Source: Escherichia coli | Lineage (GTDB): Bacteria > Pseudomonadota > Gammaproteobacteria > Enterobacterales > Enterobacteriaceae | Direction: 5' to 3' (one strand) | NCBI RefSeq assembly: GCF_003334335.1 | Contig: NZ_QOWQ01000077.1 | DNA length: 5,196 bases | In this document: piece by piece, positions 2,347 through 5,196 of the stretch | Numbering within the stretch: position 1 is the stretch's first letter | How the letters are laid out: every line of letters starts with the position of its first letter | Notes under the pieces: generated by a model | Told to the model about the DNA's origin: nothing | What the model saw: only the letters and a program-made list of their open reading frames with translations | The model's database searches: none | Program-made: the position numbers and the translations under genes

Positions 2347-3819
2347 ATGGATAAAGTCACTGATAATTCTCCAGATGTGGAGAGCACAGAATCTACTGAG
2401 GGGTCATTCCCAACTGTTGGGGTTGATACTGGCGATACGATTACAGCGACGCTTGCAACTGGAACTGAAAATGTTGGTGGAGGCGGTGGAGCATTTGGTG
2501 GGGCCAGTGAAAGTTCTGCTGCGATACATGCAACCGCTAAATGGTCTACCGCGCAGTTGAAAAAACATCAGGCTGAACAGGCTGCCCGTGCTGCTGCGGC
2601 TGAGGCAGCATTGGCAAAAGCGAAATCTCAGCGTGATGCCCTGACTCAACGTCTCAAGGATATTGTTAATGACGCTTTACGTGCTAATGCCGCTCGTAGT
2701 CCATCAGTAACTGACCTTGCTCATGCCAATAATATGGCAATGCAGGCAGAGGCTGAGCGTTTGCGCCTTGCGAAGGCAGAGCAAAAAGCCCGTGAAGAAG
2801 CTGAAGCAGCAGAAAAAGCGCTCCGGGAAGCAGAACGCCAACGTGATGAGATTGCCCGCCAACAGGCTGAAACCGCGCATTTGTTAGCAATGGCGGAGGC
2901 AGCAGAGGCTGAGAAAAATCGACAGGATTCTCTTGATGAAGAGCATCGGGCTGTGGAAGTGGCAGAGAAGAAGCTGGCTGAGGCTAAAGCTGAACTGGCG
3001 AAGGCCGAAAGCGATGTACAGAGTAAGCAAGCGATTGTTTCCAGAGTTGCAGGGGAGCTTGAAAACGCTCAAAAAAGTGTTGATGTGAAGGTTACTGGAT
3101 TTCCTGGATGGCGTGATGTTCAGAAAAAACTGGAGAGACAATTGCAGGATAAGAAGAATGAATATTCGTCAGTGACGAATGCTCTTAATTCTGCGGTTAG
3201 CATTAGAGATGCTAAAAAAACAGATGTTCAGAATGCTGAGATAAAATTAAAAGAAGCTAAGGATGCTCTTGAGAAGAGTCAGGTAAAAGACTCTGTTGAT
3301 ACTATGGTTGGGTTTTATCAATATATAACCGAACAATATGGGGAAAAATATTCCAGAATAGCTCAGGATTTAGCTGAAAAGGCGAAGGGTAGTAAATTTA
3401 GTAGTGTTGATGAAGCTCTTGCTGCATTTGAAAAGTATAAAAATGTACTGGATAAGAAAATCAGTAAGGTTGATCGGGATGCTATTTTTAATGCGTTAGA
3501 GTCTGTTAATTATGATGAGTTATCTAAGAATTTAACGAAGATATCAAAGTCGCTTAAAATCACTAGTCGAGTATCTTTTCTATATGATGTTGGTTCTGAT
3601 TTTAAAAATGCAATAGAAACTGGTAACTGGCGACCTTTGTTTGTCACGCTGGAGAAAAGTGCGGTCGATGTAGGTGTGGCAAAAATTGTGGCATTAATGT
3701 TTAGTTTTATTGTTGGTGTGCCTCTTGGTTTCTGGGGGATTGCAATTGTCACAGGTATTGTTTCTTCTTACATAGGGGATGATGAGTTGAACAAACTTAA
3801 TGAGTTGTTAGGGATTTAA
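2347..3819 (+). CDS. cta: Pore-forming colicin, colicin E1 family (490 aa); best recalled match is colicin 10
   Basis: AGAGGA lies 9 nt upstream of the ATG. Residues ~55-130 ([29 protein letters not shown]...[16 protein letters not shown]...[31 protein letters not shown]) and the C-terminal channel domain (YGEKYS...[28 protein letters not shown]...LKIT..VSF.YDV.SD...TG.W.PLF.TLEK.A.D.GV...VAL.FS...[15 protein letters not shown]....LN..NE.LGI) closely parallel the recalled colicin E1 sequence. The N-terminal ~50 aa and the central region differ. The 490-aa length, the 96-aa immunity protein and the 43-aa lysis protein fit my recollection of colicin 10, but colicin 5 or a close relative cannot be excluded without a search. 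Confidence 0.85.
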
Positions 3820-4135: not shown

Positions 4136-4267
4136 ATGAAAATAATAATTTTTCTAATTACAATATTATTCTTGTCAGGATGTCAAGCAAACTATATTCG
4201 TGATGTGCAAGGAGGAACCGTTGCACCATCTTCGTCTTCTGAACTGACGGGGATCGCGGTTCAGTAG
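4136..4267 (+). CDS. ctl: Colicin lysis (release) lipoprotein, 43 aa
   Basis: Not in the supplied ORF track (too short). Hand translation gives [43 protein letters not shown], with GGAAAG 5-10 nt upstream of the ATG. Signal peptide plus LSGC lipobox and a short mature peptide are typical of colicin lysis proteins. It sits downstream of the immunity gene on the colicin strand, as kil does in ColE1. Confidence 0.8.
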
Positions 4268-4275
4268 AAAAGATC

Positions 4276-4302
4276 AAAGGATCTTCTTGAGATCCTTTTT
4301 TT
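4276..4302 (+). terminator. Rho-independent terminator of the colicin-lysis operon
   Basis: Hairpin aaaggatct / agatccttt with a 5-nt loop, followed by a T7 run (4295..4302), immediately after the lysis gene stop. Confidence 0.65.
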
Positions 4303-4316
4303 CTGCGCGTAATCTG
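4287..4316 (+). promoter_or_regulatory. RNA II (replication primer) promoter
   Basis: -35 TTGAGA (4287..4292), 17-bp spacer, -10 TAATCT (4310..4315). The segment tcttgagatcctttttttctgcgcgtaatctgctgc is essentially identical to the recalled pMB1/ColE1 sequence upstream of the RNA II start. Confidence 0.65.
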
Positions 4317-4321
4317 CTGCC

Positions 4322-4429
4322 TGTAAACGAAAAAACCGCCTGGGGAGGCGGTTTAGTCGAAGGTTAAGTCAGTTGGGGACTGCTTAACCGGGTAACTGGC
4401 TTTAGTGGAGCACAGATACCAAATGCTGT
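4322..4429 (-). ncRNA. RNA I antisense copy-number control RNA (about 108 nt)
   Basis: The 5-prime end ACAGCAUUUGGUAUCUGUGCUCC... is the complement of 4429 downward and is homologous to the pMB1 RNA I start ACAGUAUUUGGUAUCUGCGCUCUG. The 3-prime end is the hairpin plus U-run complementary to aaaaaaccgcctggggaggcggttt at 4327..4351. Confidence 0.75.
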
Positions 4430-4865
4430 CCTTCCAGTGTAGCCGCTATAAGGCTTCAACTTCAAGAGTTCTGCGTATCTAAATCCACTATCCAGTTACC
4501 AATGGCTGCTGCCAGTGGCGTTAAGTCGTGTCTTACCGGGTTGGACTCAAGACGATAGTTACCGGATAAGGCGCAGCGGTCGGGCTGAACGGGGGGTTCG
4601 TGCACACAGCCCAGCTTGGAGCGAACGACCTACACCGAACTGAGATACCAACAGCGTGAGCTATGAGAAAGCGCCACGCTTCCCGAAGGGAGAAAGGCGG
4701 ACAGGTATCCGGTAAGCGGCAGGGTCGGAACAGGAGAGCGCACGAGGGAGCTTCCGGGGGGAAACGCCTGGTATCTTTATAGTCCTGTCGGGTTTCGCCA
4801 CCTCTGGCTTGAGCGTCGATTTTTGTGATGCTCGTCAGGGGGGCGGAGCCTATGGAAAAACGCCT
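4323..4865 (+). ncRNA. RNA II pre-primer of the ColE1-type origin
   Basis: Starts at gtaaacgaaaaaacc..., homologous to the pMB1 RNA II start gcaaacaaaaaaacc.... The 5-prime ~110 nt are diverged from pMB1, then the sequence is near-identical to pBR322/pUC from about 4500 onward (ccagtggctgctgccagtggcg.taagtcgtgtcttaccgggttggactcaagacgatagttaccggataaggcgcagcggtcgggctgaacggggggttcgtgcacacagcccagcttggagcgaacgacctacaccgaactgagatacc...). The 3-prime end is approximate. Confidence 0.8.
4437..4465 (-). promoter_or_regulatory. RNA I promoter
   Basis: On the - strand: -35 TTGAAG (complement of 4460..4465), 17-bp spacer, -10 CTACAC (complement of 4437..4442), 7 nt before the RNA I start. Same architecture as the recalled pMB1 RNA I promoter. 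Confidence 0.6.
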
Positions 4866-4870
4866 GCGGC
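4850..4870 (+). other. Origin of replication (RNA II to DNA transition point, oriV)
   Basis: ggcggagcctatggaaaaacgcc is identical to the pBR322 sequence surrounding the mapped leading-strand start. The downstream 4900..5036 (tcacatgttctttcc...gcggaagagcgcc) is near-identical to the pBR322 region carrying the primosome assembly site. Confidence 0.7.
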
Positions 4871-5091
4871 GCGGGCTTCTTCCGGTGCTTTGCTTTTTGC
4901 TCACATGTTCTTTCCGGCTTTATCCCCTGATTCTGTGGATAACCGTATTACTGCTTTTGAGTGAGCTGACACCGCTCGCCGCAGTCGAACGTCCGAGCGT
5001 AGCGAGTCAGTGAGCGAGGAAGCGGAAGAGCGCCTTATGTGACATTTTCTCCTTACGCTCTGTTGTGCCGTTCGGCATCCTGTCCTGAGCG

Positions 5092-5196
5092 TTATCTCTC
5101 TGTGCTATTTTCTACTTCAAAGCGTGTCTGGATGCTGTTCTGGAGTTCTTCTGCGAGTTCGTGCAGCTTCTCACACATGGTAGCCTGTTCGTCAGC
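5092..5196 (-). CDS. rom: Rom/Rop, 3-prime portion (stop at 5092..5094); continues as feature 1..167 across the circular junction
   Basis: Same reading frame as feature 1..167; reverse-complement translation ends ...QTRFEVENSTER*. Positions 5120..5196 duplicate 1..77. Confidence 0.85.
   Translation of the reverse strand, partial: ADEQATMCEKLHELAEELQNSIQTRFEVENSTER
5120..5196. repeat. Terminal 77-bp exact duplicate of window positions 1..77 (circular-plasmid linearisation overlap, not a biological repeat)
   Basis: aagcgtgtctggatgctgttctggagttcttctgcgagttcgtgcagcttctcacacatggtagcctgttcgtcagc occurs at 1..77 and 5120..5196. Implied unit length is 5,119 bp. Confidence 0.9.

Follow-up and report, generated by a model that had tools for sequence, protein, structure and literature searches.

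We analyzed a 5,196-base stretch of Escherichia coli DNA (contig NZ_QOWQ01000077.1; the whole stretch is hereafter called the window) with respect to the control region of its ColE1-family replicon, and especially to positions 4322–4429. By analogy with ColE1 as far as its role in vivo is concerned, this interval very probably encodes RNA I, i.e., the copy-number and incompatibility determinant, of a replicon of the pColK-K235 type; the same confidence extends to the joint reading that this replicon is a mosaic generated by recombination and that its specificity has changed. We base the identification of RNA I on its match to the corresponding Rfam family, on its predicted fold, on the homologous promoters, terminator, and origin, and on the presence of rop. 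As the original prediction for this DNA had claimed, a diverged RNA I/RNA II 5′ region (65–68% identity to ColE1 and pMB1) stands beside a nearly identical origin (~99%).

RNA I, its promoters, and its known type

Within the window, RNAI (RF00106) was the sole Rfam family to reach its gathering score. The match spans positions 4327–4427 on the minus strand, covers the model over its full length (positions 1–102), and scores 77.4 bits (gathering score, 47; E = 1.4e-13). When aligned to ColE1, the two ends of the interval 4322–4429 coincide with the 3′ and 5′ ends of ColE1 RNA I, delimiting a 108-nt minus-strand RNA that is predicted to act as an antisense inhibitor of primer formation. After a single-stranded 5′ tail of 9 nt, this RNA folds into three stem-loops, the number anticipated in the original prediction (−39.6 kcal/mol, z = −6.9, with none of 200 shuffled sequences folding as well), and its minimum-energy and centroid structures are identical. 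In the 5′ to 3′ direction of the RNA, i.e., on the minus strand, these are hairpin III′ (4391–4420, loop CCACUAA at 4402–4408), the middle hairpin II′ (4362–4389, loop (U)CCCCA(A) at 4374–4378), and the 3′ hairpin I′ (4328–4359, inner stem 4333–4354, loop CCCC (UCCCCA) at 4342–4345). Hairpin I′ is followed by a U-run and was scored as terminator-like in a terminator scan, consistent with an intrinsic terminator.

Compensatory pairs across 18 diverse RNA I sequences of the family (RNAalifold) support hairpins I′ and III′: the stem of hairpin III′ is largely conserved across the ColE1 family, and compensatory changes are found across it in the hairpin I′ region. The middle hairpin is missing from the consensus of these 18 sequences, although each of them folds one on its own, because MAFFT cannot align sequence that has been fully replaced. 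The particular replacement reported within RNA I was also recovered, with ccgcctggggaggcgg located at 4336–4351 in place of the ColE1/pMB1 sequence ccaccgctacca(a/g)cggtgg.

RNA I is antisense over its full length to the 5′ end of RNA II, and the 3′ part of this RNA II, like the origin, is homologous to that of ColE1, as established from alignments running through the origin. The RNA II primer precursor would span ~538 nt on the plus strand (4323–4860), from the ColE1-homologous start to the A-run (4856–4860) at the RNA/DNA switch (GGAAAAACGCC, 4854–4864), both ends being set by alignment to ColE1, pMB1, p15A, and CloDF13. Its putative promoter (4287–4315, plus strand) comprises a −35 box TTGAGA (4287–4292), a 17-nt spacer, and a −10 box TAATCT (4310–4315), and is the same as in ColE1/pMB1 in the alignment. 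The putative RNA I promoter lies on the minus strand at 4436–4465, with −35 (TTGAAG, 4465–4460) and −10 (TACACT, 4441–4436) hexamers that are conserved with ColE1/pMB1. Both counterparts were assigned from the mapped RNA II and RNA I promoters of ColE1.

The neighborhood of the RNA II promoter holds a further element. Immediately downstream of the lysis gene, a terminator-like sequence (4276–4298, plus strand), made up of a perfect 10-bp inverted repeat and a T-run behind it, overlaps the −35 box of this promoter (4287–4292), so that read-through from the colicin operon would end inside the replication promoter. The sequence is the same at this position in ColE1, pMB1, and CloDF13.

Following the ColE1 paradigm, RNA I would be transcribed off the minus strand, and its three loops would kiss the complementary loops of nascent RNA II, in a complex stabilized by the plasmid-encoded Rop. 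The 5′ tail of RNA I would then zip up the duplex, and RNA II would lose its ability to form the RNA–DNA hybrid at the origin near 4856–4860.

All 178 bases of positions 4322–4499 are identical to pColK-K235 (NC_006881.1, 4676–4853). Judged by its sequence, the RNA I studied here is the already known pColK-K235 type and not an unknown divergent variant. Over 4264–4873 the window is 98% identical to pColK-K235, with ~3.5% of positions differing in the 3′ part of RNA II and the origin (4500–4873). Plasmids of the pColK-K235, colicin K, and colicin 10 kind share with the window both the gene order (colicin, immunity, lysis, origin) and the presence of rop; the plasmid analyzed here differs from the pColK-K235 type in measuring 5119 bp, in having no annotated relaxase gene, and in the E1-like N-terminal part of its colicin.

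Overall, 4322–4499 was matched at ≥99% identity by 52 PLSDB records, at 95–99% by 53, and at 90–95% by 77, and in complete E. coli genomes by 52 records at ≥99%. At ≥95% identity, the conserved 3′ module (4520–4873) matched at least 1451 PLSDB plasmids vs 105 for the RNA I module (4322–4499), indicating that the same origin module pairs with many control modules.

Some matches to the RNA I module lie outside plasmids. In complete E. coli genomes, 55 of the 511 matching places are on chromosomes, and could be integrated ColE1-like replicons or assembly issues. Separately, scanning genome contigs with a ColE1 control-region pattern returned many matches in Streptomyces, a Mycoplasma synthetic chromosome, a Nitrospira metagenome-assembled genome, and Streptococcus. 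Since the RNA I of the matches in these unrelated organisms is identical to pMB1-type, ColE1, or p15A references, they most likely reflect cloning-vector contamination of the assemblies.

Extent and origin of the diverged block

We compared the window to ColE1 (NC_001371.1), CloDF13 (NC_002119.1), a pMB1-type vector origin, and p15A from a pACYC184-sized record; the pMB1-type and p15A origins were retrieved with query sequences that both matched public records at 100%. RNA I is 65.5% identical to ColE1 and 66.4% identical to pMB1 in a five-way alignment, and 68.4% identical to each of the two in pairwise global alignment. Positions 4520–4806 match ColE1 at 283 of 287 sites (98.6%) and pMB1 at 284 of 287 (99.0%), and the upstream positions 4264–4321 are 96.6% and 98.3% identical, respectively. 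The original prediction had confined the divergence to 4322–4429. The sequence is indeed diverged there, but the block is longer and runs to 4499: positions 4430–4499, which hold the RNA I promoter and RNA II nt ~108–177, are 55–60% identical to ColE1/pMB1. In sliding-window comparisons the diverged block covers 4321–4499, and the sharp boundary that had been claimed was found on both of its sides, at ~4321 and ~4500. Otherwise, ColE1 and pMB1/pBR322/pUC share with the window the RNA II promoter (97–100%), positions 4520–4806, the origin, rop, and the overall mechanism, as well as the stem of hairpin III′ and the RNA I 5′ tail, whereas the RNA II of the window is ~17 nt shorter, with deletions at 4336 and 4477.

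The first half of the block resembles another member of the family. By sequence similarity, hairpins I and II (4321–4403) are of the CloDF13 type, positions 4322–4403 being 92.9% identical to CloDF13 vs 63.6% to ColE1/pMB1. Loop I′ (UCCCCA) is the same in both plasmids, and the hairpin I′ stems are distinguished by a compensated change (CCGCC/GGCGG in the window, CCACC/GGTGG in CloDF13). Loop II′ differs from that of CloDF13 by a single U, i.e., a 1-nt deletion in the window, and is unrelated to the loop UUGGUAG of ColE1/pMB1/p15A. The RNA II promoter region is 95% identical to that of CloDF13, from which the origin of pCDF vectors derives. Elsewhere the two differ: loop III′ (CCACUAA) departs at three of seven positions from both ColE1 (CUGCUGA) and CloDF13 (CUGCGAA), positions 4430–4499 are 48% identical to CloDF13, and the 3′ part of RNA II with the origin is 76–86% identical, CloDF13 having a 41-nt insertion there. 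p15A (the pACYC184 origin) belongs to the same family as the window, has the same architecture, and shares the hairpin I stem CCGCC/GGCGG. However, its loops I′ (CUGCAA) and II′ (the ColE1-type UUGGUAG) are both unlike those of the window, its RNA I is 74% identical, and its 3′ RNA II and origin are 78–80% identical. p15A is itself a hybrid of hairpin types.

The second half of the block (4430–4499, plus strand, RNA II nt ~108–177) is 48–60% identical to ColE1, pMB1, p15A, and CloDF13, and 94–97% identical to pU13A_C, a colicin S4 plasmid, and a Salmonella plasmid, in each of which the flanking modules differ. Positions 4404–4499, which contain hairpin III and the RNA I promoter followed by ~70 nt, appear to represent a third type that also occurs in colicin S4 plasmids, colicin Z-like plasmids (pU13A_C), and certain Salmonella plasmids. 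From 4500 to 4873 (plus strand), the 3′ portion of RNA II together with the origin is of the ColE1/pMB1 type, with 97–99% identity to ColE1, pMB1, pRHB07-C22_3, and pF7508-2 vs 76% to CloDF13. These comparisons suggest that at least three modules make up this mosaic replicon, namely 4321–4403, 4404–4499, and ~4500 to the origin, which we refer to as modules B, C, and D.

Such an arrangement would have arisen by homologous recombination between co-resident ColE1-family plasmids across conserved flanks, with either side as the donor. Alternatively, the region may have diverged in place, i.e., the RNA I region would have undergone rapid point mutation under selection for a new incompatibility specificity, without recombination, while purifying selection kept the rest frozen. 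RNA I is the most variable region of the family, as reflected in the 105 vs at least 1451 plasmids cited above, and loop changes alone can create compatible origins (PMC9458437), both of which would fit this scenario. It would nevertheless require ~35–40 substitutions plus indels within 108 nt, vs 3–4 in the neighboring 287 nt. Moreover, the “new” hairpins I and II would have to be 93% identical to CloDF13 by mutation: CloDF13 resembles the window more in this hypervariable block than in the slowly evolving module D (76–86%), the reverse of what is predicted from one shared history.

The distribution of informative sites points in the same direction. For the triplet of the window, ColE1, and CloDF13, 27 of the 28 informative sites within 4321–4403 join the window to CloDF13, while outside this interval 90 of 105 join it to ColE1, and the two-breakpoint maximum chi-square of 69.0 was reached in none of 500 permutations. 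Three-taxon patterns of this kind could stem from a burst of change in one lineage, and we also counted sites splitting four plasmids two against two, because a one-lineage burst does not produce them. Seven sites uniting the window with CloDF13 against pMB1 and p15A are clustered at 4366–4378, and 15 of the 18 sites uniting the window with pMB1 against CloDF13 and p15A lie at or beyond 4523. Both hairpin II alleles would therefore be old, the ColE1 allele being common to p15A and the window allele to CloDF13, which further argues against divergence in place.

Other combinations of these modules are present in complete plasmids. We compared a panel of such plasmids with the window across modules B (4321–4403), C (4404–4499), and D (4500–4873). 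In pZ1323, module B is 93% identical to the window (95% to CloDF13), module C 62% (94% to ColE1), and module D 97%. The corresponding values for B, C, and D are 75%, 94%, and 98% in pU13A_C; 98%, 97%, and 73% in a 7665-bp Salmonella plasmid (Sal_ColV_7665); and 98%, 82%, and 98% in a 3282-bp Salmonella plasmid. In pF7508-2 from E. coli O157, modules B and C fall to 56% (76% to p15A) and 50% (91% to p15A), respectively, with module D at 99%. A wider sample of 108 replicons, collected with a conserved pattern in one scan of genomes and one of metagenomes, sorted into 12 clusters for B, 13 for C, and 12 for D, which occurred in 35 combinations, with all four “gametes” present for several pairs of types; the B type of the window occurred with 8 D types, and its D type with 5 B types. 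This suggests that module recombination is general in the ColE1 family and not peculiar to this plasmid. Recombination within the replicon, which the original prediction had proposed, appears well supported, in that the breakpoint test, the quartet sites, and the reassorted complete plasmids agree, and we regard divergence in place as very unlikely.

Still far less probable is an origin of the junctions in assembly or cloning, i.e., a chimeric contig of two co-resident ColE1-like plasmids. Although short-read assemblers can join plasmids across conserved flanks, and some matching records hold two or three copies of the region (possibly multimers or misassemblies), the same B/C/D arrangement with a 100% identical RNA I module recurs in ~50 independent plasmid records from various hosts and countries, including pColK-K235 (NC_006881.1) and two records matching the whole window at 99.9%. 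These independent records effectively refute an artefact. A survey of ColE1-like plasmids (PLoS Genetics 2021, PMC8683028) treats recombination only in connection with co-integrates and the rop/relaxase region, and the literature we searched, with older subscription literature outside our reach, yielded no earlier description of module exchange within a ColE1-type replicon.

Loop specificity and predicted compatibility

All three RNA I loops of the window differ from those of ColE1/pMB1. Three of seven positions differ in loop III′, five of seven in loop II′, and all positions in loop I′ (CCACUAA, UCCCCAA, and UCCCCA in the window vs CUGCUGA, UUGGUAG, and UUGGUAG in ColE1/pMB1). The original prediction had depended on the loops not being those of a standard ColE1/pMB1 RNA I, which proper alignment confirmed. 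In terms of its RNA I sequence, the replicon falls outside the ColE1/pMB1 incompatibility group. Single loop changes reportedly alter specificity in ColE1, as Tomizawa and Itoh and Lacatena and Cesareni are said to have found in 1981. RNA I has long been recognized as the part of these replicons that varies and determines specificity, and related plasmids are likewise known to belong to different incompatibility groups (PMC9458437, PMC8683028).

As a crude proxy for specificity, we summed the duplex energies of the three loop pairs. The RNA I of the window reaches −32 kcal/mol with its own RNA II, about +5 kcal/mol (+5.4) with that of ColE1 or pMB1, and about 0 kcal/mol with that of p15A. Two pairs of plasmids with incompatibility groups assigned in PMC9458437 served as calibrators: ColE1 with pMB1, from the same group, yields −28 to −30 kcal/mol (within-group range −28 to −33), and ColE1 with p15A, from different groups, −8 to −11 kcal/mol. 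With CloDF13, the window yields −24 to −27 kcal/mol vs −35 for the cognate pair, and cross-reaction, i.e., partial or full incompatibility, is possible with CloDF13 (pCDF) origins.

Natural co-residence was found in E. coli B1172 (GCF_029536615.1), in which pB1172_6988 and pB1172_11599 are separate circular records. The former is a colicin K plasmid with the exact RNA I module of the window, and the latter a colicin E1/Tn3 plasmid with the exact ColE1 RNA I module. The two are 100% identical upstream, 96% identical in module D, and 65.5% identical in RNA I.

A mosaic replicon could nonetheless carry an RNA I that is not functionally orthogonal, with the shared hairpin III′ stem, 5′ tail, and Rop leading to at least partial incompatibility with ColE1/pMB1. 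The hairpin III′ stem is conserved and eight of the nine bases of the 5′ tail are the same as in ColE1/pMB1; in addition, loop divergence alone has been described as an unreliable predictor of compatibility, which forms a continuum (PMC9458437), and the co-residence evidence comes from a single isolate. However, all three loops are unlike those of ColE1/pMB1, and the loop-pair energies are zero or positive. p15A has one entire loop in common with ColE1 (−8 to −11 kcal/mol), yet is assigned to a different incompatibility group and was a compatible control in PMC9458437, and in the single isolate B1172 the colicin K plasmid with the window RNA I and the colicin E1 plasmid with the ColE1 RNA I assembled into separate circles. 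At least partial incompatibility with ColE1/pMB1 is hence an unlikely outcome, if somewhat less so than divergence in place.

Several points weigh against the combined reading of a recombined replicon with its own specificity. The loop-energy proxy ignores the geometry of the kissing complex, the stems, the 5′ tail, and Rop. Co-residence was seen in one isolate among the matches listed (the best 60 per replicon type), and ~52 and 134 carrier records in 5426 genomes lead one to expect about one co-occurrence by chance; being at about chance level, B1172 indicates that coexistence is possible and does not imply that it is stable. A generic sigma-70 consensus scan called neither the RNA II nor the RNA I promoter, in the case of RNA II because the −10 box matches the consensus at only three of six positions, and both promoters are putative assignments made only by homology to the mapped ColE1 promoters. 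Regarding recombination, metagenome contigs may be chimeric across conserved flanks, such that the 108-replicon sample is supporting only; and the three-taxon patterns could also come from a burst in the ColE1 lineage, the case against which rests on just the seven clustered quartet sites and the reassorted panel. The literature searched contained nothing relevant on ColK/ColE1 compatibility.

Given the differing loops, the zero or positive loop-pair energies, and the co-residence in B1172, we consider it likely, with good confidence, that the replicon is compatible with ColE1/pMB1 and p15A; the probable compatibility with ColE1/pMB1 put forward originally can be retained as a prediction. The replicon would combine ColE1-like origin mechanics with a different control specificity.

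The colicin plasmid, paired loops, and implications

The 5196-base window represents a complete circular plasmid of 5119 bp with a verified terminal overlap of 77 bases (bases 1–77 equal 5120–5196). Two E. coli records, CP125069.1 and NZ_CP049851.1, are 99.9% identical to it across the whole window, and on these matches the plasmid is a sequenced, widespread colicin plasmid that is already in GenBank. The annotation of the identical record includes a colicin K immunity gene, a lysis gene, Rop, a MobA/MobC-like protein, and an Exc2 lipoprotein, and the larger relatives (6.8–8.3 kb) are colicin K and colicin 10 plasmids. The rop (rom) gene spans the window ends on the minus strand, with its 5′ part at 1–167 and its 3′ part at 5092–5196, as assigned from the Rop family protein annotation in the identical record and from the terminal overlap; its translation, which we checked, is an intact protein of 64 amino acids.

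The colicin gene (2347–3819, plus strand) is chimeric. Residues 58 to ~200 of its product resemble the N-terminal part of colicin E1, and residues 163–490 are 80% identical to colicin K, being near-identical in the pore-forming, immunity-specifying end; the first ~160 residues have no alignment to colicin K. RefSeq names the product only “colicin-like pore-forming protein”, and a colicin K immunity gene adjoins. In the mobilization region (443–775 to ~940), only a small MobC/MobA-like accessory gene is left, and the relaxase gene (mbeA) and mbeB/mbeD of the 6.8–7 kb relatives are not among the annotated features of the 5119-bp plasmid, which looks like a deletion derivative and may be non-mobilizable on its own. 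A 47-amino acid “replication initiation protein” with a GTG start (4462–4605, minus strand) was called by the Prokaryotic Genome Annotation Pipeline (PGAP) inside RNA II, overlapping the RNA I promoter region, and the same protein is annotated in many ColE1-like plasmids. Since ColE1-type replication needs no plasmid-encoded initiator, this call probably reflects an artefact of annotation.

Within a given plasmid of our sample, RNA II hairpins I and II usually share one loop motif, and from one plasmid type to the next the two loops change jointly. TGGGGA occurs twice in both the window (4341–4346 and 4372–4378) and CloDF13, CTACCAA twice in ColE1/pMB1, CTGGCA twice in pU13A_C, and TTCTCAG twice in pPCP1 of Yersinia pestis. 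The CAGCAA and CGGCAA types are also found in both hairpins, and TTGGC nearly so, making six to seven mutually unrelated motifs; p15A and a few others have hybrid loop pairs. A shared 6-mer between two random heptamers is very rare, so that the match between loops I and II is not due to chance. More speculatively, and in our judgment rather doubtfully, the control region might be built of independently exchanged, hairpin-sized modules (hairpins I and II; hairpin III and the RNA I promoter; the 3′ part of RNA II and the origin) in which loops I and II are kept identical. If true, new incompatibility specificities would arise mainly through loop copying within the RNA and module shuffling, and not through stepwise point mutation, and the paired-loop rule would be a design rule for orthogonal origins.

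The module swap described here is real but ordinary, i.e., of a kind that is common in this plasmid family. In practical terms, with origin mechanics resembling ColE1/pMB1 and what would be a CloDF13-like control specificity, the replicon should coexist with pUC, pBR322, and pACYC vectors, and may interfere with pCDF vectors. PLSDB rep_cluster_2350 includes this plasmid, ColE1, and a pMB1 vector alike, and replicon typing by the conserved origin would hide the incompatibility determinant. Since control and origin modules appear to reassort freely, ColE1 trees built from whole origins would mix different histories.

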